IMG/VR virus record: IMGVR_UViG_3300027887_000001
Coordinates: 1-56,421 of that record
Strand: one strand, 5' to 3'
From: a virus
DNA: 56,421 nucleotides
Part shown: in pieces, positions 4,921 through 31,369 of the stretch
Numbering within the stretch: the stretch's first letter is position 1
Layout: each line of letters begins with the position of its first letter
Notes under the pieces: model-generated
Database searches by the model: none
What the model saw: only the letters and a program-made list of their open reading frames with translations
Told to the model about the DNA's origin: nothing
Translations under genes and position numbers: made by a program

Positions 4921-5480
4921 AACCATATCTTAGCAAGGCGATCTATCAGGCGTTACAAGAACCCGATCACAGCGAGTTGATTGAGATCATGCAACGAGCA
5001 CCCGGACAAGAGGAGTGCATTGACATTGCAACCCGCTTTATGGACGAGATGCGAGACTTGATTCTTGAGATCCCAGGCGTTGCAGACGCGATCATGAAAG
5101 CGATTCCAGACGATTACCGATGGGATGACCTTGATGATCATCCAAGCAAGAGTAGCTTGGTGTATCAGTACGTGTGGGATCTAATGAACACGTGCGACAA
5201 CACGCTACATAAGGTCAAGTCGTGGCGAGACATCTCGAGCATCCATCAAGAAGTTCCAGGCTACGAGCACTGCGTCGAAGTAACCTTCGATCGAGACTTC
5301 TGGAACGATGAGCAGAAAGAAGCCATGCAGGAAACGGCACGCGATCTCTGCCGAGAAGAAGTTGGTTACATAACAGATGCACAAGATCTTGGTGTGAATC
5401 TCGACTTCGATTGGCGAGATGACCATGAAGTTTGGGTACGCTTCAACGACGTACCTGCAACGGAGGATCTCGATGCCTAA
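4917..5480 (+). CDS. Hypothetical acidic protein (187 aa)
   Basis: ATGA overlap with the upstream stop. Confidence 0.6.
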   Translation: MKPYLSKAIYQALQEPDHSELIEIMQRAPGQEECIDIATRFMDEMRDLILEIPGVADAIMKAIPDDYRWDDLDDHPSKSSLVYQYVWDLMNTCDNTLHKVKSWRDISSIHQEVPGYEHCVEVTFDRDFWNDEQKEAMQETARDLCREEVGYITDAQDLGVNLDFDWRDDHEVWVRFNDVPATEDLDA

Positions 5481-5688
5481 GATCGTAACACGTGTGTTGT
5501 TAGTAACATACACCGAGGACGATGAAACTCAGGATATCACGCTCAAAGATGTTCGCGAGCAGCGTCCCAACGATGTAGTCGAGCTACCGATCAAGTATCT
5601 CGACAACGGTACCCGAGGAGTAATACTGTTTCGTAGTCGAGATGACGAGACAGGTTGCTCATTACTGATCATCGAGAACAAGTTCTAG
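5473..5688 (+). CDS. Hypothetical protein (71 aa)
   Basis: Start moved to ATG 5473 behind ggagga (5462-5467). Confidence 0.55.
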   Translation: MPKIVTRVLLVTYTEDDETQDITLKDVREQRPNDVVELPIKYLDNGTRGVILFRSRDDETGCSLLIIENKF

Positions 5689-5704
5689 AGCATAGGAGGC
5701 TCAC

Positions 5705-5911
5705 ATGAAGACAATTCGAAACAAGACTGATGGCGTTGCGAAGCGGTTCGCGAATCACATTGCAGAGCAACTCGTTGCGAACGAATCCGAGAAGTACGAG
5801 TACTGCCCGAAGCACGTATATCGCGGGCAGGAATGCGTTCGCAACGGCATCGCAACCGCGCTGAACACAAAAGTTGTCGTAACCGAGGTGAAAGATGATA
5901 CCGAATCCTAG
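5705..5911 (+). CDS. Hypothetical protein (68 aa)
   Basis: ataggaggctcacATG RBS. Confidence 0.6.
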   Translation: MKTIRNKTDGVAKRFANHIAEQLVANESEKYEYCPKHVYRGQECVRNGIATALNTKVVVTEVKDDTES

Positions 5912-22528: not shown

Positions 22529-23158
22529 GTGCCCTCAATTGATTTCAAAGCGGTTGATACGCCCGTCTTTTCTCGACCCGAATTGCTAAGACATGGAACA
22601 ATCCCGCAACCCCTCTTTGGTGTGGCTCCTAGAAACATCATGGGAGAAGTCTGGTGGGATCTTACCAGACGCGAGGCTTACTCGCGGAACAACATGCGTT
22701 GCTACGCCTGTGGGGGTCCTGGACCTCTCAATGCACATGAAGTCTATGACATTGATTATGCCAGGCGTACGTCAACGTACATCGAAGCCGTTGCCTTATG
22801 CAACAAATGCCACGATTTCATTCATATCGGCAGGCTTGTCAGTCTATTCTCGCGTGAGAAAGTTTCTATACGCGAATTCAAGGCGACGGTATTACACGGA
22901 TACAATACTCTCCGCGTTGCAGGTCTCAAATGTCATTGGTCCACCACAGCCATTCGGACAGCAACGACATACATGAAGGCCGACAAGGGATGGGTTGATC
23001 AGATACTACGTAACTGCGATCCACCTCCTAAGGTTGTCATGGAACACAATGCTAAGCTCGAATGGGATGACTGGCGAATGATATTCGAAGGTAAGAAGTA
23101 CAAGCCGAAGTATGTAAACAGTGCTGATGCTACACAACATTATCTTATGGAAGAATAG
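22529..23158 (+). CDS. Zinc-binding, HNH-like protein of unknown function, GTG start
   Basis: GTG 22529 after ggaggga. RCYACGG...NAHEVYD...LCNKCHDFIHIG resembles an HNH/zinc-finger core. Confidence 0.45.
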   Translation: MPSIDFKAVDTPVFSRPELLRHGTIPQPLFGVAPRNIMGEVWWDLTRREAYSRNNMRCYACGGPGPLNAHEVYDIDYARRTSTYIEAVALCNKCHDFIHIGRLVSLFSREKVSIREFKATVLHGYNTLRVAGLKCHWSTTAIRTATTYMKADKGWVDQILRNCDPPPKVVMEHNAKLEWDDWRMIFEGKKYKPKYVNSADATQHYLMEE

Positions 23159-23166
23159 GAGGTGAT

Positions 23167-23898
23167 ATGACAAGAACAGTGTTATTGTTTTCGGGTGGCT
23201 TAGATAGTACTTCGTTGCTAGCCCAACTAATGACAACAGAGGAAGAAATCCTTGCGCTGTCGTTCAAGTATGGCTCTCTTCACGAAGGTTCTGAGATGTT
23301 GGCAGCTGCAAATGTGATAAAGTATTACGAAGGAGTTGCCCACGAAGTGATTCAGTTACCCATCGAAATATTTGCAGGTGGTAGCTCGGCTTTACTAGGA
23401 CAGACTGAAATGCCTAACGAGGAATACCACGATATCACCAAAGAGACTCCTTCAGCAACAGTAGTGCCATTTCGTAATGCTAATCTCATTTCGATGGCTG
23501 TCTCAGTTGCGAACTCTCGTGGCTTCGATCAAGTTGCCATTGCGAACCATGCAACGGACTCGCAAGGATGGGCCTACCCAGATTGCACACCAGAATTTAT
23601 GGGTCCGATGGCGGCAGCAGTATACATTGGAACGATGAGAGCTGTTCGGCTGTACACACCCTTCCAGTTCCTGACGAAGGCTGATATTGTGACGCTAGCT
23701 GCTAGGCACAGGGCGCCATTGTATTTGACTCGTTCGTGTTATCGAGGTGGTATGATTGCATGTGGGGAGTGCCCTACATGCTTAGAGCGCATTACGGCTT
23801 TCGTAATTGCTGGCTACGTTGACCCAATCAAGTACGTTCTCGAACCTAGAGCTTGGGACATTGTTGGTCTCAAAGAGTTTCCGAAAGAAGAGAGGTGA
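23167..23898 (+). CDS. queC: 7-cyano-7-deazaguanine synthase QueC
   Basis: PP-loop VLLFSGGLDSTS, VVPFRNANL, YPDCTPEF, C-terminal SCYRGGMIACGECPTCLERITAF..YVDP. Confidence 0.9.
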   Translation: MTRTVLLFSGGLDSTSLLAQLMTTEEEILALSFKYGSLHEGSEMLAAANVIKYYEGVAHEVIQLPIEIFAGGSSALLGQTEMPNEEYHDITKETPSATVVPFRNANLISMAVSVANSRGFDQVAIANHATDSQGWAYPDCTPEFMGPMAAAVYIGTMRAVRLYTPFQFLTKADIVTLAARHRAPLYLTRSCYRGGMIACGECPTCLERITAFVIAGYVDPIKYVLEPRAWDIVGLKEFPKEER

Positions 23899-23900
23899 GC

Positions 23901-24542
23901 ATGGCAACAGCAGTACTTGCATTAGACGGATTAGCAACAGCAACACTCATAGCTGATGTGGTGGTCGAAGCTGCGATCCCAAATGATACTATGGTTGTTT
24001 CGCTACCACACGGCTTACGCCATCAGGAAGGAACGGCACAAAGAGTATCAGCCCACTTTGGGCTCAACTGGTACTCCTTTGACGTACCTCAGTTATGGTA
24101 TAGTAGTGATCCGATGATTGTAGTACCTTTTCGAGATTCATTACTTGCGGGCTATGCGATTGCATTAGCTGCTCAGTATGCAGTTAGTTGGATTGCCCTT
24201 CCTGGTCATGCTAGTGCACCTTATACATGGACAACGCCCGATTATATGCCCGAGTGCGTAGGTGGCTTAGCTTCAGCAGCGGTTGCGGGTACGAACTTAG
24301 CAGTCCGTGTACGAGCACCCTATGCTTGGATGACGAAGGCTGATATCGTTCGTTGGGCAGCCGTTCTTCGCGCACCGCTATGGCTCTCTTGGTCATGCTA
24401 CATCAATGATATAGCTGCATGTGGCGTATGTCCTTCATGTCTCGAACGTATCGCAGCCTTCACCGAAGCGGGCTTCATCGATCCTATCTCGTATGCTATC
24501 CAAGTAGCGTGGCCGCAGGGTATCGCGGAGTTTCCGAGGTAA
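23901..24542 (+). CDS. QueC paralog with degenerate PP-loop (function unknown)
   Basis: Collinear with QueC (VVPFRD, MPECVG, MTKADIV, SCYINDIAACGVCPSCLERIAAF..FIDP), but SGGLDS is replaced by LDGLAT. Confidence 0.75.
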   Translation: MATAVLALDGLATATLIADVVVEAAIPNDTMVVSLPHGLRHQEGTAQRVSAHFGLNWYSFDVPQLWYSSDPMIVVPFRDSLLAGYAIALAAQYAVSWIALPGHASAPYTWTTPDYMPECVGGLASAAVAGTNLAVRVRAPYAWMTKADIVRWAAVLRAPLWLSWSCYINDIAACGVCPSCLERIAAFTEAGFIDPISYAIQVAWPQGIAEFPR

Positions 24543-24545
24543 TGT

Positions 24546-24986
24546 ATGTGGACAATCTCAAGGGACTATTCGTTCAGTGCCGCTCATCGAATTGAGGGCC
24601 ACCCCAAATGCGGACGTCTTCATGGGCATAACTACAAGGTGCGAGTCACATTGTGGGGATATCCCGGTAGGAGTGGGATGCTTCTTGATTACGGTGACCT
24701 TGATAAGATAGTCAAGCCCTTCATTGAAGCTCTCGATCACAGATACATCGTTTCGAATCAAAACGAAAGTGGAGGTGACGAATATGGACCTATTGCAGTA
24801 AAGCGTGGTGATGCAGCAAGATTGAACATCGAGGCATCTACAGCAGAACTTCTAGCAAAGTGGTTCTTCACACTCTGTAGGCATGATCTGCTTTCGAAGT
24901 ATCCAGGAACATGGTACGAAGGTTTCCGAATGGCAATTGAGGTTCAGGAAACTGACAAATCGTTCGCAACCTATACGGAGATGTAA
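24546..24986 (+). CDS. queD: 6-carboxy-5,6,7,8-tetrahydropterin synthase QueD
   Basis: FSAAHRIEGHPKCGRLHGHNYKV matches the PTPS/QueD active-site motif. 146 aa. Confidence 0.85.
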   Translation: MWTISRDYSFSAAHRIEGHPKCGRLHGHNYKVRVTLWGYPGRSGMLLDYGDLDKIVKPFIEALDHRYIVSNQNESGGDEYGPIAVKRGDAARLNIEASTAELLAKWFFTLCRHDLLSKYPGTWYEGFRMAIEVQETDKSFATYTEM

Positions 24987-24987
24987 T

Positions 24988-25635
24988 ATGTCAAAGACTT
25001 GCACCAAGTGTCAACAAACTAAAGAAGACGATGCCTTCAACAAGGATAGTCGGTCTATCGATGGCTTGGCGTGGTGGTGCAAAGACTGCTCGCGGGCTCA
25101 GAGTAAGAAGTATCGCTCCGAACATCTCGAAGAACGCCGTGCAGTAGAGCGCGCTCGACGAACCGACACTGACAGAGAGCGCGCTCGTAACTACTATCAC
25201 GAGCATCGAAAAGAGTACAAGGCCTACATTACGGCTCATCCTGAAGTTCATCGTAGATCAGCACTCAAGACGTTCTACAAACTCACGATGGAAGAGTACG
25301 ATAAGATGCTCATTGAGCAAGATGGTAAGTGTGCCATCTGTGAGACTCCGCAGGAAGAGCTCAAGAAGCCCCTCGTTGTAGACCACGACCATAACACAGG
25401 GGCAGTGCGTGGGCTTCTTTGCCCTAATTGCAATCACGGCTTAGGTCGTTTCAAGGACAGTCTAGATACCGTTAGAAAGGCTGTATTGTACTTAGAGCAA
25501 GGTGAGGTTCGTAATATTATTGCAGCTACCGCGGCTGCAGAGAAAGCAAAGGAGGTGGTGCCTGTTGAAGTGAAACAAGAACAGCCGATAAAAGAGGTGA
25601 AAGATGACAAGCCAAAGTACACAGCAATTGATTGA
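24988..25635 (+). CDS. HNH endonuclease, endonuclease VII family (free-standing homing-type)
   Basis: QDGKCAICE...LVVDHDHNTGAVRGLLCPNCNHGLGRF is the Endonuclease_7 core. Additional N-terminal CxxC...CxxC. Confidence 0.8.
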   Translation: MSKTCTKCQQTKEDDAFNKDSRSIDGLAWWCKDCSRAQSKKYRSEHLEERRAVERARRTDTDRERARNYYHEHRKEYKAYITAHPEVHRRSALKTFYKLTMEEYDKMLIEQDGKCAICETPQEELKKPLVVDHDHNTGAVRGLLCPNCNHGLGRFKDSLDTVRKAVLYLEQGEVRNIIAATAAAEKAKEVVPVEVKQEQPIKEVKDDKPKYTAID

Positions 25636-26315: not shown

Positions 26316-26534
26316 ATGTCTACAAAAGCGATATCAAGGATTATGTTGTATAACTACATATACTACTTGCAAGAGCTTGTGCCCTTTTCTTGGATAGAAG
26401 GTATGAACATGCTTGAGCCTAATGAGACCTTGCCTATACAAGGAATTGTTTACTCACAGCATCCGGACACAGCCTTCCCTTTGGAAGTGCTTGCGTTACG
26501 TAAAGGAGACTCCGATGACCTATCAAGTAAATGA
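26316..26534 (+). CDS. Questionable small ORF (72 aa)
   Basis: ggaga lies only 3 nt before the ATG. The ORF overlaps the queE start by 20 nt. The region could instead be a leader. Confidence 0.25.
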   Translation: MSTKAISRIMLYNYIYYLQELVPFSWIEGMNMLEPNETLPIQGIVYSQHPDTAFPLEVLALRKGDSDDLSSK

Positions 26535-27153
26535 AATCTTTCGATCAGTGCAAGGAGAAGGACTTCTAGCTGGCACTCCCGCAACCTTTATCCGCTTACA
26601 GGGATGCACTGTAGGATGTCCTTGGTGCGATACGAAGTACACATGGAATAAAGGCGGTACCAAGCTTGGGGTTGATGAGATACTCGAAATAGCATATCCA
26701 CTTCAGCCTCTAGCTGTGATTACTGGGGGTGAACCTACATTGTACAATCTTGATGAGCTAATCAAGGGTCTGTGGGATGTGGGTCAGAAGCGCTATGGAT
26801 ATACTTTTGGGGTGCAACTCGAAACATCAGGTCAACAAGATCTCAAAGGCGAGCTTAGGCCCAACTGGATCACGTGGTCACCTAAACCAAACCTGAATTA
26901 CAATGCACCTGAGGCACTCATAAAGCAGGTTTCCGAAGTCAAGTGGGTTATAGATGACGAGATTGAGTTGGACACAATACTTACTCTAGCTGAATGGTTC
27001 AATACACATACTAGACATAAGGTTCCGTTTGTGTTGATGCCAGAAGGAACTCCTCCTACTCAGGAACACGTTGATAAGGCTCTCGAGTGGGTTGCAAATC
27101 GTAAGCACTTCCGATACGGCGATCGCATTCAATGGCGGATAGGAGTAAAATGA
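26515..27153 (+). CDS. queE: 7-carboxy-7-deazaguanine synthase QueE (radical SAM)
   Basis: Start at ATG 26515 after aaaggaga. EIFRSVQGEGLLAGTPATFIRLQGCTVGCPWCDTKY contains the CX3CX2C radical-SAM cluster. Confidence 0.85.
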   Translation: MTYQVNEIFRSVQGEGLLAGTPATFIRLQGCTVGCPWCDTKYTWNKGGTKLGVDEILEIAYPLQPLAVITGGEPTLYNLDELIKGLWDVGQKRYGYTFGVQLETSGQQDLKGELRPNWITWSPKPNLNYNAPEALIKQVSEVKWVIDDEIELDTILTLAEWFNTHTRHKVPFVLMPEGTPPTQEHVDKALEWVANRKHFRYGDRIQWRIGVK

Positions 27154-27710
27154 TGGCCAGTCCAATGCATAATGACGAAATGAGACTTGCGGATATCCTA
27201 AAAGGTATCTTTGGTATGGAAGTCTGGGACGACTCTGTAGAACAAACTGCTGCACGATGGCTTAGAGCAATGAAGGAGTTCGCGCCTGATGCAGAGCCCC
27301 CTTTTATATTCACAACGTTTCCCGCACTAGCGAATCAGATGATAGTAGTGAAGAACATCGAGTTTGCGTCACTATGCGCACATCATCTCTTTCCATACGC
27401 GGGGCTAGCCCATGTGGGATATATTCCGAACGAATTGCAAGTTGGTGTAAGCAAAATTCCGAGATTAGTACACCACTTAGCGAAGCGGCCGAGCGTGCAA
27501 GAGAAGCTTACGCGCGACGTAGCCTCGTTCATGAAGCATCAGCTATCCGCGATGGGAGTCGCAGTTGTTATACAGGCAACCCATACTTGTATGTCGTGTC
27601 GGGGAGTTAGTGAACACAATGCTATCATGAGCACATCCGAAATGCGCGGTGTGTTCTTGACGGCCTCAGAAGCACGTCAGGAGTTTCTCACCCTGGCAGG
27701 ATTGGTATAA
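27150..27710 (+). CDS. folE: GTP cyclohydrolase I (FolE type 1)
   Basis: SLCAHHLFPY (CEHH-like), VGVSKIPRLVHHLAKRPSVQEKLT, ATHTCMSCRGV. Start at ATG 27150 or 27153 after AGGAG. Confidence 0.85.
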   Translation: MMASPMHNDEMRLADILKGIFGMEVWDDSVEQTAARWLRAMKEFAPDAEPPFIFTTFPALANQMIVVKNIEFASLCAHHLFPYAGLAHVGYIPNELQVGVSKIPRLVHHLAKRPSVQEKLTRDVASFMKHQLSAMGVAVVIQATHTCMSCRGVSEHNAIMSTSEMRGVFLTASEARQEFLTLAGLV

Positions 27711-27711
27711 C

Positions 27712-27909
27712 ATGGCTACTGTTAGTCTACATCCAAACTCCAGTCTAACGGTTGTACAGAATGAGTTCATGATATATGCAACCGAAATGATATGGAATAA
27801 CAAGGTCGATCGAATCGTCAAGGAGTACGACAATCTCGATATTATTGTGTATCGACTACCAGGTACTATTCGAATCGATATCAGATTGAAAGGATTACAG
27901 CCAACATGA
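27712..27909 (+). CDS. Hypothetical protein (65 aa) between folE and the dpdA-like gene
   Basis: ATG 2 nt after the folE stop. ATGA overlap with the downstream gene. Confidence 0.45.
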   Translation: MATVSLHPNSSLTVVQNEFMIYATEMIWNNKVDRIVKEYDNLDIIVYRLPGTIRIDIRLKGLQPT

Positions 27910-28646
27910 AACTAGCTGTTATTACTCCACCCAAGGGCCTAAAGCTACTCTCGCATCATGAGTTGGGATATCATATGGTACTTCCACAGTATATGACTAT
28001 TCCCAGCTATGCGATATTCTATCATCGTGTTGCAAAAGGTGGGCACTTCATCATGGTAGATAACGGAGCAGCTGAACTAGGTAAGTCTATAGAATGGGCT
28101 ACCGTGCTTGATGTTGCAGATCAACTAGATGCAGCTGAGATTGTGATGCCAGATGTGCTAGACAACGCTTTGGAAACCTGGATCGAAACAGAAAAGGCGT
28201 TACCAACAGTACCTGCACGTAGGAGAGCTATGTGTCCTCAAGGTCGTTCATGGAGCGACTGGGAATCATGTCTAGAGCGTATGGTAAACGCAGGTTGCCG
28301 AACGATTTGTGTAGCAAAACGTTACGAGAAACTTCCAGGTGGACGTGCTCGTGGCGTCGAAATCATATGCAAGCACAATTGGCATCTAGACCACGATATC
28401 CATTACCTAGGAGTTCATAAAAATCCCTTAGCCGAAGCACAACTTGCAGTGAATCAGCACAACGACGATATCTCTAAGCTTGTGCGAGGTATAGATACTG
28501 CAGCACCAATTGCATATGCACAAGCTGGCATACGCTTAGACGCCACCGATTCGCATCACTCGTTGGATTGGACAAAAGAATTCCCTATTGAACTTGCGTC
28601 AAGCAATATAGCATTGCTACTTAGCATTACTGATAGCAGGAGGTAA
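27906..28646 (+). CDS. dpdA: Minimal TGT-fold DNA-guanine transglycosylase (DpdA-like)
   Basis: FIMVDNGAAE (cf. TGT DSGGFQ), VMPDVL, HYLGVHKNP (cf. YLMGVGKP), GIDTAAPIAYA (cf. FDCV.PTR). No C-terminal zinc subdomain. 246 aa. Confidence 0.6.
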   Translation: MKLAVITPPKGLKLLSHHELGYHMVLPQYMTIPSYAIFYHRVAKGGHFIMVDNGAAELGKSIEWATVLDVADQLDAAEIVMPDVLDNALETWIETEKALPTVPARRRAMCPQGRSWSDWESCLERMVNAGCRTICVAKRYEKLPGGRARGVEIICKHNWHLDHDIHYLGVHKNPLAEAQLAVNQHNDDISKLVRGIDTAAPIAYAQAGIRLDATDSHHSLDWTKEFPIELASSNIALLLSITDSRR

Positions 28647-28647
28647 T

Positions 28648-28908
28648 ATGCACATCGAAGTGAAGGATCCGCTCAAGAAAGACATTGTAGGAGTATTGTG
28701 TATCGAACGAGATTCACACTCCGCAATTATCCTAGAAGCCGAAATCGAGTACTTGGAGACTCTGGTATCGATTGCCAAGTCTCAGAAGGTGCCATTAGTT
28801 ACGCTTGTGGTACCCCATGGTGCGGTTCCTGAACTACAAGCACTAGGTTGGCAAGTTGATGACACCCGCGTTGTGCTTACGAAAGGCGGTAACGGTAATG
28901 GATCCTGA
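28648..28908 (+). CDS. Hypothetical protein (86 aa)
   Basis: aggaggtaatATG RBS. Sits between the dpdA-like gene and the polymerase. Confidence 0.5.
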   Translation: MHIEVKDPLKKDIVGVLCIERDSHSAIILEAEIEYLETLVSIAKSQKVPLVTLVVPHGAVPELQALGWQVDDTRVVLTKGGNGNGS

Positions 28909-31369
28909 AGAGAAGACATTCGAAGAGATATGGGGCATTCCAGATCCTGATGAAGAGGCTGTTGCGCCTAAAGCTCCAGGTGCTAAGTGTGCAACATGTC
29001 CTTTACGCCATCAACCTTACGTACCACACTCAGGTTCATTCGATGCATCGCTAATCATTATTGGTGAGGCACCTGGTGTAAAGGAAGTTGAGTTAGGTGC
29101 ACCATTTGTAGGACCTTCGGGTCAGCTTCTAGATACTGCTATCGAATGGGGTGGCGGTGATCCGGAAGACACATTCAGAACGAACATCGTTTGTTGCAAA
29201 CCGATTAGTCGTTCACCTGATATGGCTTCTGTAGGATGCTGTCATGACCGCCTGATAAAAGAACTCGAACAGTGTACATCGGATAAGATTCTCGTATTAG
29301 GTATGACAGCTACAGACGCCTTGGATTTTGCACCACAGCAAGGTGTGTGGCAGCCTTGGGGCAGTGCACACGCGCTAGTTGCCTGGCATCCGGCTTACAT
29401 CCTTCGTGACAAACCCGAAGAGGCTCCGATGTTCCTAGCTTGCGTTGCCTCAGCGGTGAAGGGGCCAGGATTTATGAAGAAGTTCAATCCTCAGCCTGTC
29501 TTCTGTAACACAGTAGAAGACTTGCAGGAGCAGTTCGCAAAATGTCCTGAGGGCTCTTGGGTAGCGCTAGATATTGAGACCGATCAGATCCAATGGTTCA
29601 ATACACCCAAGAAGTTAGCAGATGGTATCATCATGCTCCAGCTGTGCTGGGATGCGGATTATGCTGTTATCATATCGGATGCATTGATATACGATACACC
29701 CGAAGCAGTTATCTGTATCAATCAGTTCCTTGCAAAGCGTAAGATATGTGGACATAACGGGAAGTTTGACCAAGTCTTTCTGAAGTCTCATGTAGGTATT
29801 GACTTCTGGTTGGAATTTGATACTATGCTTGCTCACTATATCCTGAACGAGAATCTCAAGCACGGCTTGAAGGCGATAGCGCAACTAGAGTTTGGGATGT
29901 TCGATTACGAAGAGAAGATGTTGCACACATATCTCACTAGCCGTAATGATAGATACTCCAAGATCCCTTACGAAGAGTTTGCAGTATATGGTGGTAAGGA
30001 TGTTGCAGTAACATTAGCCCTTCGAGAGATATTCGAGGCGCGCCTTCGTAAGGAAGGGCAATATGATATGCCGTTCATGGAAATCATAATGCCTGCAGCG
30101 AATATGCTCACACAAGTAGAGTTGAAAGGTATGCATATCGACCCATCCAGGTTCGGAGCTATCTCCGCTGAATTCAAACAGCGAATCGAAGCTTCGACAG
30201 CAAAAATGCGGGAATTGGGAAACGCACCAAATCTAAATCCGAACTCGACTCAGCAGTTGGCTGTATTACTTTACGACGAGATGCATGCGCCTATTCCACA
30301 AGGCCGACAGTTCAAGGCTCGATCAACAAATAAGGATGCCTTGCAGAAGCTAAAGAAGATGACACATGATCCTGTTGTCCTGGAGTTCATAAAAGAACTC
30401 ACCGAGTATCGTCGTGTTGAAAAAATGCACAACTCATATGTAGATAACCTGCGAGATGTCATAGACATAGATAATCGTGTGCATGGCACGTTCCAAATCT
30501 TTGGAACTGAAGTAGGTAGGTTGTCCGTCAGAGATCCAGCGTTACAGACGATACCCAGACCTGATGATAGATTAGGATGGCTCATCCGAAGTATGTTTAC
30601 TGCTTCACCTGGTAACGTATTAGTCATCGGTGACTATAGTCAAGCAGAACTACGCGTATTGGCTTGTTACTCAAACGAGCCGTTCTTACTCGATGTTTAT
30701 GCGCACGGACGAGATCTTCATACTGAAGTTGCACTCAAGATGTTCGGTGAAGTGTTTACCAAGGCTGATCGAGCCAAATGCAAGATGTTCAACTTCTCAT
30801 ATGTATATGGTGGCACTGAGTATTCGTTTGCAGAAGATGCAGGTCTACCTATTGAGATAGCACATCAGTTCGTTCAAGACTATAATCGGATGATGCCTAC
30901 AGCATTAGCCTGGAAGCGAAAGCAATTCGAGACGATGCGTAAGGAAGGTGAGGTCTCTACCATCTTTGGTAGGAAGAGACGCTTCCCACTAATTGTGGAA
31001 TCCATTCTTGGCGACGTTCGCAAAGCAAGTACGCATATGGTGATATCATCTACAGCATCAGACTTAGACTTGATTTCGGCACTTGAGTTACACAATGAAG
31101 GTGTACCTATTGTACTATTAGTACACGACAGCATCATCGCGGAAGTGCCAATAGCACAGGGCAAAGACATTGGCCTGCGAATGTTTGCCAAGATGAAGGA
31201 AGTAGGAACTAGGTACTTCCCACAGATTCCGTGGGTTGCAGATGTTGAAGTACGCGATAGATGGTGTGGTGGAGATTACGAAGCGTACAATGGACCTGAA
31301 GAAGGTTGGGTCTTCCATTCAGGTGAGAAGGAAAACGATACTATGGCAGACTTAACGGTGCACGTATGA
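28898..31369 (+). CDS. Family A DNA polymerase with 3'-5' exonuclease and an N-terminal family-4 UDG-like domain
   Basis: UDG4 motifs: GEAPGVKE..GAPFVGPSGQLL, WHPAYILR, Cys CATCP/CCKP. Exo motifs: ALDIETD, GHNGKFD, YGGKDV. Pol motifs: GDYSQAELRVLA, RAKCKMFNFSYVYGG, LLVHDS. Confidence 0.9.
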   Translation: MDPEEKTFEEIWGIPDPDEEAVAPKAPGAKCATCPLRHQPYVPHSGSFDASLIIIGEAPGVKEVELGAPFVGPSGQLLDTAIEWGGGDPEDTFRTNIVCCKPISRSPDMASVGCCHDRLIKELEQCTSDKILVLGMTATDALDFAPQQGVWQPWGSAHALVAWHPAYILRDKPEEAPMFLACVASAVKGPGFMKKFNPQPVFCNTVEDLQEQFAKCPEGSWVALDIETDQIQWFNTPKKLADGIIMLQLCWDADYAVIISDALIYDTPEAVICINQFLAKRKICGHNGKFDQVFLKSHVGIDFWLEFDTMLAHYILNENLKHGLKAIAQLEFGMFDYEEKMLHTYLTSRNDRYSKIPYEEFAVYGGKDVAVTLALREIFEARLRKEGQYDMPFMEIIMPAANMLTQVELKGMHIDPSRFGAISAEFKQRIEASTAKMRELGNAPNLNPNSTQQLAVLLYDEMHAPIPQGRQFKARSTNKDALQKLKKMTHDPVVLEFIKELTEYRRVEKMHNSYVDNLRDVIDIDNRVHGTFQIFGTEVGRLSVRDPALQTIPRPDDRLGWLIRSMFTASPGNVLVIGDYSQAELRVLACYSNEPFLLDVYAHGRDLHTEVALKMFGEVFTKADRAKCKMFNFSYVYGGTEYSFAEDAGLPIEIAHQFVQDYNRMMPTALAWKRKQFETMRKEGEVSTIFGRKRRFPLIVESILGDVRKASTHMVISSTASDLDLISALELHNEGVPIVLLVHDSIIAEVPIAQGKDIGLRMFAKMKEVGTRYFPQIPWVADVEVRDRWCGGDYEAYNGPEEGWVFHSGEKENDTMADLTVHV

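Follow-up and report, generated by a model that had tools for sequence, protein, structure and literature searches.

A QueC paralog without the PP-loop in the 7-deazaguanine operon of a metagenomic phage

Here, we analyse a stretch of 56,421 nucleotides of viral DNA (IMG/VR record IMGVR_UViG_3300027887_000001, positions 1 to 56,421; the whole stretch is called the window in the following) and, within it, a gene at 23901..24542 on the plus strand that encodes a degenerate paralog of QueC. It follows directly on an intact phage queC. We observe that the paralog is a real gene under purifying selection and not a decaying pseudogene. As read from the sequence, its Mg-ATP site, which contains the ATP-pyrophosphatase loop (PP-loop), is comprehensively gone, whereas one half of its base site is retained and the other has been rebuilt. 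The loss of QueC chemistry, i.e., the conversion of 7-carboxy-7-deazaguanine (CDG) via 7-amido-7-deazaguanine (ADG) to 7-cyano-7-deazaguanine (preQ0), thus appears firmly supported by the alignments. As to its present role, we tentatively favour an ATP-independent protein that would act via a re-tooled deazaguanine pocket and would probably tailor preQ0.

The paralog and its former active site

Independent gene callers report the same product of 213 amino acids, or variants of 84-85% identity, from 11 public contigs. These represent three lineages, namely the window type, the contigs L001 and L002, and the contig L029. The start codon is preceded by GAGAGG, which still lies within queC (TGA stop at 23896-23898), and L029 carries GGAGGA at the equivalent position. 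A preliminary description of this DNA, made from the letters alone, had called the two adjacent open reading frames (ORFs) collinear, and both indeed lie on the plus strand within a collinear replication module. The motifs it quoted are all present as written. Its pairing of the QueC motif YPDC with MPEC, however, is in the wrong register: the ungapped alignment sets YPDCTPEF against TPDYMPEC, so that YPDC corresponds to TPDY (T112-P-D114-Y115). The gene has the following features.

23901..24542, plus strand: degenerate QueC paralog (pseudo-QueC), coding sequence of 213 amino acids, ATG at 23901, stop codon ending at 24542
23890..23895, plus strand: GAGAGG, Shine-Dalgarno-like site as read from the sequence, 5 nucleotides before the paralog ATG and within the end of queC
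23922..23939, plus strand: former PP-loop, residues 8-13, LDGLAT (SGGLDS in QueC), from alignments
24009..24029, plus strand: HGLRHQE, counterpart of QueC YxQxHxxE; Y replaced by H37, Q by L39, H41 kept
24123..24137, plus strand: VPFRD, counterpart of VPxRN; R78, whose Cap9 equivalent stacks on the base, kept; N replaced by D79
24207..24257, plus strand: remodelled base-binding loop HASAPYTWTTPDYMPEC (in QueC HATDSQGWAYPDCTPEF); D114 kept, from alignments
24333..24350, plus strand: TKADIV motif with the conserved QueC lysine (Lys146), which is Arg in L029
24396..24440, plus strand: Cys4 zinc motif C166-x7-C174-x2-C177-x2-C180 with the SCY tyrosine, from alignments

The relationship to QueC is far beyond chance at the sequence level: paralog and adjacent QueC share 46% identity over 142 C-terminal residues (BLASTP, E 2e-41), and several phage QueCs of the same clade align with the paralog end to end at 33-37% identity (BLAST). 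The paralog belongs to PF06508 (4.7e-19, 69 bits against a domain cut-off of 22), where it matches model positions 88-209 only, whereas the adjacent QueC covers positions 2-207. It misses the equivalog cut-off of TIGR00364 with 54.3 against 150.3 bits, and again matches positions 88-201 only. Among Pfam models PF06508 is the sole match, with neither a glutamine amidotransferase domain nor DUF328 found, and the matches to phrog_10428 are confined to the QueC part of that family. By these comparisons, the paralog is a QueC-fold and predicted zinc-binding protein from the QueC clade of this phage group.

The preliminary description had also called for a structure prediction of the paralog alone. 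Based on an alignment of 26 sequences, the AlphaFold2 model reaches a predicted TM-score (pTM) of 0.81 and a mean predicted local distance difference test (pLDDT) of 78, and shows a Rossmann-like strand-helix pattern followed by a helical C-terminal part. The best Foldseek matches in the PDB are the QueC structures of B. subtilis (3bl5) and Pectobacterium (2pg3) and Cap9 (9nto, chain 9nto_B), the latter among the four best, with TM-scores of 0.65-0.76. The whole QueC fold is thus predicted, and because the best matches are QueC and Cap9 structures, the N-terminal half should still be QueC-like in fold. In a sequence search of the PDB (phmmer), Cap9 was the sole match.

Conservation was scored at 45 positions, each of them conserved to at least 80% in a set of 130 representatives of diverse QueCs. 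The adjacent QueC keeps 45 out of 45, the paralog 3 out of 12 in the N half and 26 out of 33 in the C half. In the former PP-loop, S is replaced by L, G by D, D by A (V in L001) and S by T, and the second G alone is kept. The motif YxQxHxxE was defined in PMC13329287, where Y35A is described as a loss of function in QueC; the paralog has lost the conserved Tyr and Glu of this motif, YG(Q/S)xH having become HGLRH. A lid segment of about 25 residues, which includes GGSALLG (conserved GSALL), is deleted. In the base-binding loop, the stacking Tyr is replaced by T112, C by Y115, a conserved F by C119 and the Asp of HxxD by A106. Arg78, His103, Pro113, Asp114, Lys146, the SCY motif, the zinc cysteines and the C-terminal R..AF..DP..Y helix are kept. 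The four zinc cysteines and Y167 are present in all three paralogs, and the adjacent QueC has the same zinc motif, C-x7-C-x2-C-x2-C.

According to the paper on the Cap9-NDG structure, the deazaguanine is held by the side chains of Tyr115, Asp117 and Arg86. In the alignment, Tyr115 and Asp117 correspond to Y and D of YPDC, and Arg86 to R of VPxRN. Of these contacts, the paralog keeps Asp114 and Arg78 and has Thr112 in place of the stacking Tyr. In E. coli QueC, Y35, R99 and Y131 are reported as essential, and Y131A is inactive.

These comparisons refine the preliminary description in several points. Its claim that the paralog is unable to adenylate gains support from the sequence, as four out of five PP-loop residues and the HxxD Asp are replaced and the score lies at 54 bits against the 150-bit cut-off of TIGR00364. 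Since the Mg-ATP site is destroyed and the lid deleted, the paralog is not expected to make ADG or preQ0 from CDG. The reported loss of the PP-loop stands but was drawn too narrowly, for the lid is deleted and positions in YxQxHxxE, VPxRN, HxxD and YPDC are changed as well. Likewise, the zinc and substrate half was said to be kept; this holds for the four zinc cysteines, Asp114 and Arg78, but not for the stacking Tyr (Thr112) and other cleft residues. With these corrections, a possible residual binding of a 7-deazaguanine, which the description had considered, is supported.

Selection, rarity and exchange

Between the window and L001, the paralog shows a ratio of nonsynonymous to synonymous divergence (dN/dS, omega) of 0.09 at a dS of 1.07. 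The paralog proteins of both are 85% identical and the adjacent QueC proteins 77%; the adjacent QueC has a dN/dS of 0.066, with a dN of 0.16 vs 0.10 for the paralog. Within the paralog, omega amounts to 0.13-0.20 in the N half and to 0.05-0.12 in the C half. The tightest constraint is found in residues 101-145, with 3 nonsynonymous-variable vs 20 synonymous-only codons. This part takes in the remodelled stretch that corresponds to the YPDC loop, along with the following helix, and its constraint argues that the pocket or surface matters beyond a scaffold.

The family consists of three 90% clusters among 5.8 billion proteins (5-mer-indexed search). When 1.84 billion representatives were searched exhaustively with the profile, 470 bits were reached by the paralog's own cluster, and the next match had 123 bits and was limited to the C half. 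Among the top 150 profile matches, those lacking SGGxDS were fragments or minor variants and included no second PP-loop-less family. No further paralog was found in a scan of IMG/VR or in a scan of GTDB genomes, and none of 50,697 phage records searched by tblastn showed a tandem pair, QueC being matched at a single place per record. None of the three 90% clusters comes from an isolate phage; the family is known from metagenomes only. A megablast search of phages with the gene cluster was without a match.

Relatives of the locus were collected by a DpdA-anchored metagenome scan and by look-ups of the nearest QueCs, and many of them have the same module order. In L009, L010, L011, L016, L021, L035 and L037, queC is followed directly by queD, and in L036 an ORF of 57 amino acids lies between the two. 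These syntenic relatives without the paralog are not close, with DpdA 34-47% or QueC 59-62% identical. Because the nearest QueC relatives beyond L001 are at most 62% identical, the paralog appears confined to a shallow tip of the phage group and to L029.

In L029 (L029:17-1443, ENA ERZ27247683 k141_994424), the order is HNH-paralog-QueD without a queC between, and the paralog ATG stands directly after the HNH stop. The paralog can thus occupy the slot where queC normally sits. Its product is 84% identical to that of the window (80% at the DNA level, dS ~1), whereas the flanking genes are far more diverged (HNH 54%, N-terminus of QueD 67% identical, synonymous divergence saturated). Being more similar than their flanks, the two paralogs would have a more recent common ancestor and would have been exchanged between diverged backbones; the sequences indicate a recent horizontal exchange of the paralog alone. 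The HNH protein of L029 is unique in the database, and related IMG/VR loci are only 34% identical. The tandem arrangement with QueC that had been described at the outset therefore holds for phages of the window type and the L001 type but not for L029, where the paralog directly follows HNH. An obligate partnership with the adjacent QueC is weakened by this lack of a neighbouring queC.

A separate observation concerns the segment from queC via the paralog to queD (window 23167-24986 vs L001:6368-8185), which is far more diverged than the flanking backbone genes. Here, queC has 71.5% DNA identity and a dS of 2.47, in comparison with 92% for HNH, 88.5% for the gene of the primase-like protein and a dS of 0.2-0.6 for the backbone. 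Judged by these values, the modification module is mosaic between window and L001, the two closest of these phages.

As to the origin of the paralog, a recent duplication of the neighbouring QueC is unsupported: the adjacent QueC ranks only 16th among the BLAST matches of the paralog, and other QueCs of the same phage clade match better. In a neighbour-joining tree, the paralog stands on a long branch beside the QueC clade. The C-terminal W..G..FP tail was considered as a sign of duplication in place, but several phage QueCs have it, too, so that it cannot serve as a diagnostic trait. The GC content at third codon positions gave no foreign signature for the paralog.

Operon context and comparison with known systems

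The replication module of the window runs on the plus strand and encodes a PD-(D/E)XK nuclease, AAA_24, DUF669, a primase-like protein of 810 amino acids, HNH, QueC and the paralog, followed by QueD, endonuclease VII, DUF6378, QueE, FolE, a protein of 246 amino acids and a fusion of uracil-DNA glycosylase (UDG) and PolA. The genes of interest are listed here.

22529..23158, plus strand: HNH endonuclease-like gene (phrog_5200, 1.2e-20), upstream of queC; its L029 homologue abuts the paralog
23167..23898, plus strand: intact phage QueC, 243 amino acids (PF06508 over its full length, 4.6e-48), with 45 out of 45 conserved positions
24546..24986, plus strand: QueD of the CxxxHGH type (PF01242, 1.9e-25)
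24988..25635, plus strand: endonuclease VII-like gene (PF02945, 2.5e-25), downstream of queD
26515..27153, plus strand: QueE-like radical S-adenosylmethionine (SAM) protein (phrog_2076, 2.2e-34; gene call on L003)
27132..27710, plus strand: FolE, GTP cyclohydrolase I (PF01227, 1.2e-48)
27906..28646, plus strand: candidate DpdA3-type DNA transglycosylase, 246 amino acids, by homology to CGPG_00065 of Cellulophaga phage phiST

The protein at 27906-28646 has no match in Pfam, NCBIfam or PADLOC. It was found by a tblastn match with CGPG_00065, and a comparison by hhalign gave a probability of 96.1% (E 2.9e-9, 169 columns). Being recognisable only via the phiST DpdA3, this family seems to be missed by current annotation libraries. 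An hhalign comparison of the DpdA-like profile with the mycobacteriophage DpdA was uninformative, and a PDB sequence search with the profile returned nothing meaningful. CGPG_00065 was named DpdA3 by Cui, Hutinet and colleagues (PMC10516641). The same work links the DpdA3 subfamily to a complete replacement of G, describes the inserted substrate as uncertain, and reports dADG, dDG and fdPreQ1, rather than preQ0, from the three characterised DpdA3 phages (PMC10516641).

By homology, the transglycosylase of the cluster is of DpdA3 type and lies beside folE, queD and queE. We therefore predict that the phage carries a 7-deazaguanine in place of guanine in its DNA. In all lineages, the paralog stands directly upstream of queD in the 7-deazaguanine operon of such a DpdA3-type cluster. 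The preliminary description had proposed to look for a co-occurrence with dpdA: the paralog sits in a DpdA3-type cluster, but relatives with a DpdA3-type gene lack the paralog.

Two free-standing endonuclease-like genes (22529-23158 and 24988-25635) bracket queC, paralog and queD and are variably present in relatives; these HNH and endonuclease VII genes may drive local gene exchange. Downstream, at 28898-31369, the module carries a family-A DNA polymerase with an N-terminal domain of the UDG family (Pfam on the identical L003 gene), a fusion that is kept in L035 and L036.

Several known systems invite comparison. With canonical QueC (PF06508 cluster 1, TIGR00364) the paralog shares the fold, the Cys4 zinc motif, SCY, TKAD, the R of VPxRN, the D of YPDC, the C-terminal AF..DP..Y helix and the operon with queD, queE and folE. 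It differs in the absence of the SGGxDS PP-loop, the HxxD Asp and the lid, and in the replacements of Y35 by H, Y131 by T and N by D. The QueC* of the Campylobacter phages CP220 and CPt10 has been proposed as an ADG synthase in DpdA3 phages (PMC10516641), and is thus also a phage variant of the QueC family in a DpdA3-type system with a proposed base other than preQ0. The QueC* of CPt10, however, has an intact SGGLDS, FPDC and full length and is the sole QueC in its genome, whereas the paralog is an extra copy; with the PP-loop of QueC* intact, an identity of the two was rejected. Gat-QueC has in common that an extra component, fused to or following QueC, changes the final base (to G+), and in L022 and L024 this component uses the same slot between queC and queD. 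The paralog, in contrast, has no amidotransferase domain and is a second QueC fold.

Cap9 and QatC are QueC-family enzymes that conjugate CDG to protein N-termini in type IV CBASS and QatABCD, respectively. They are likewise repurposed QueC scaffolds, and in QatC the YPDC tyrosine is also a threonine. Both keep and require the PP-loop and are found in operons with CD-NTase or QatABD. The paralog reaches only 15-17 bits on QatC models; with the PP-loop lost and queC, queD, queE, folE and dpdA3 as neighbours, it was not assigned to either. QueF-L (from QueF) and DpdL (from QueD) are paralogs that arose in the preQ0 pathway with the loss of a cofactor site or catalytic residue. Of the two, QueF-L is a validated tailoring enzyme and DpdL only a predicted one, which also occurs with DpdA3. 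Both have the T-fold, and for the QueC paralog the sequence points to no particular activity, nor is one known; as DpdL is a QueD paralog, an identity with it was rejected. DpdC (DUF328) performs the ATP-independent nitrile hydration of preQ0-DNA to ADG-DNA, a reaction that the paralog might perform. DUF328 is an unrelated family without a match to the paralog, and this identity was dismissed, too.

QTRT2, the non-catalytic partner of the eukaryotic tRNA-guanine transglycosylase (TGT) QTRT1, is an inactive paralog whose fold and zinc site are kept. The QueC paralog likewise has lost catalytic residues but retains fold and zinc site, and it is under selection. In the PP-loop superfamily, Ctu2/Ncs2 is an inactive paralog that pairs with an active enzyme. 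An active QueC is adjacent to the paralog in the window-type and L001-type phages, and none is adjacent in the 1.4-kb contig of L029.

The module of the relatives carries further genes. In the distant relatives L022 (7107-7829) and L024 (6650-7405), a stand-alone ORF of about 245 amino acids lies between queC and queD, begins with MCGI(Y/F)GI and has weak matches to class-II glutamine amidotransferases. The arrangement resembles a Gat-QueC fusion split in two, from which dG+ would be expected in the DNA of both phages. A DJ-1/PfpI-family protein is encoded just upstream of queE in L009 (6903-8736) and L035 (7798-8451), with a SAM methyltransferase near by in L009; these may be further tailoring genes. 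L015 (3486-7910) keeps QueC and a DpdA3-like gene but lacks QueD, QueE and FolE, in whose place a LAGLIDADG-like ORF, a transporter of the Vut_1/YhhQ type (5028-5744) and a glycosyltransferase/methyltransferase fusion of 455 amino acids are found. Such a gene content points to salvage of the precursor instead of its synthesis de novo. As the module inserts of other relatives are DJ-1/PfpI, methyltransferase or transporter genes, the core module seems to carry a set of accessory genes that varies from lineage to lineage, the slot after queC being one place for them. Finally, the QueC gene of Vibrio phage VH1_2019 (L034, MN794232.1 73924-74640) is annotated as queC_2; going by this label, KVP40-like phages should have another member of the QueC family at a different, non-adjacent place, which the paralog query does not detect.

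Possible function and significance

We propose that the paralog needs no ATP and acts at the remodelled site where QueC has its active centre. This site keeps Asp114 and Arg78, the residues for reading and stacking the deazaguanine, and has gained the invariant ionisable or nucleophilic residues Asp9, His37, Asp79, Tyr115 and Cys119. Its most likely job would be the tailoring of the QueC-made base before or around DpdA3 insertion, with the addition of water (preQ0 to ADG) or of ammonia (preQ0 to G+) onto the nitrile as the simplest reactions. As ADG, preQ0 and ammonia are all accommodated near C7 in the pocket of QueC, such an addition would be the shortest evolutionary step. QueF-L and, by prediction, DpdL set precedents for this in the pathway. 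A role of the pocket is favoured because the tightest selection is found there, Asp114 and Arg78 survive, the cleft gains Asp, His, Tyr and Cys, and the gene is portable without an adjacent queC. The narrower claim of an ATP-independent 7-deazaguanine tailoring enzyme on the QueC fold, which would set the base for the DpdA3-type transglycosylase, is possible but doubtful; examples would be a free-base preQ0 nitrile hydratase, an amidine synthase or a CDG-processing enzyme in QueC-less phages.

A number of observations weigh against this proposal. The paralog is missing from at least eight syntenic relatives. The stacking Tyr, essential in E. coli QueC, is a Thr. The ionisable residues gained in the cleft are matched by ionisable residues lost, and residues 106-119 are the lowest-confidence part of the AlphaFold2 model. 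Because three paralog sequences at about 84% identity were available, statements on invariant residues are weak. The L029 contig has a length of 1.4 kb, and a queC elsewhere in that genome is possible. Furthermore, two ATP would be spent on preQ0 only for it to be returned to ADG by hydration, an apparent waste that is nevertheless found in the bacterial Dpd system, and any specific reaction assigned to the paralog is conjecture.

A serious rival, though in our view a rather unlikely one, is a non-catalytic pseudoenzyme subunit that pairs with the active QueC of phage or host and replaces one protomer of the homodimer. It would stabilise QueC or alter its output or channelling, e.g., the release of ADG or the hand-off of preQ0. 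This would agree with the reported homodimer of QueC and the homodimeric core of Cap9, with the fold, the zinc domain and most conserved positions of the C half being retained while the catalytic ones are lost, and with the presence, in two lineages out of three, of an intact queC to which the gene is translationally coupled. The same pathway has such a catalytic/non-catalytic pair in QTRT1/QTRT2, and the PP-loop superfamily has Ctu1/Ctu2. The L029 paralog, however, lacks an adjacent queC, and in its transfer from one backbone to another the gene was not accompanied by queC. The adjacent QueC looks self-sufficient (45/45) and evolves faster than its presumed partner (dN 0.16 vs 0.10), and the strongest constraint lies on the remodelled active-site loop. 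This constraint on the pocket loop and the independence from the adjacent queC would suit a non-catalytic carrier or adaptor, which binds free CDG, ADG or preQ0 and delivers it to DpdA3 or shields it from host enzymes, and so would support a high-level replacement of G. The base-reading Asp and the stacking Arg are kept with the ATP site lost, and the context is that of DpdA3, a subfamily for which a link to the replacement of all G is reported. The paralog is missing, however, from relatives that have the same DpdA3-type gene, and the loss of the stacking Tyr together with the deletion of the lid should weaken binding. To our knowledge, no such carrier exists for any DpdA or TGT system, and we consider a carrier unlikely, more so than the subunit.

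Clearly less probable again is a counter-defence decoy, i.e., a dead QueC mimic that poisons host QueC, Cap9 or QatC via inactive heterodimers or by sequestration of substrate. Cap9 and QatC are defence enzymes of the QueC family that require PP-loop and CDG, the phage pathway itself makes CDG, Cap9 is among the top four Foldseek matches, and mobility between phage backbones, which the gene shows, is frequent among accessory and anti-defence genes. The sequence relatives, however, are phage biosynthetic QueCs and not Cap9 or QatC, the very rare paralog is always found inside a biosynthetic operon, and a protein that poisons QueCs in general would not spare the intact QueC of the phage itself. 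Least credible of all is a decaying duplicate without a function of its own. The lost catalytic motifs, the absence of the paralog from most relatives and its extreme rarity would fit, but the ORF is intact in 11 out of 11 contigs from three lineages, dN/dS is 0.09 at a dS of about 1 with the protein more conserved than the neighbouring QueC, the gene was retained after transfer to a diverged backbone, and a good ribosome-binding site is kept.

Within the QueC family, the paralog is a novelty, not a separate kind of system. The 2026 survey of PF06508 distinguishes canonical QueC, QatC, Cap9, LarE and the clusters 4 and 5, all of which have SGGxDS (or SGGxDSxY). According to the preliminary description, such a degenerate QueC is not known to have been described, and in agreement with this we found no PP-loop-less or pseudo-QueC described in the literature. 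The described PF06508 lineages, among them QueC, Gat-QueC, QueC*, Cap9, QatC and LarE, all keep the PP-loop; new is a lineage of this family that has lost it, is still selected and resides inside a phage operon for DNA hypermodification. As the base inserted by DpdA3 is uncertain, a paralog with a re-tooled pocket is a concrete candidate for a missing tailoring or hand-off step. If it is a tailoring enzyme, it would be the third enzyme of the preQ0 pathway, after QueF-L and DpdL, that was turned to tailoring by the loss of a cofactor site. Should it prove non-catalytic, the QueC family would have its first pseudoenzyme, in parallel to QTRT2 in the same pathway.

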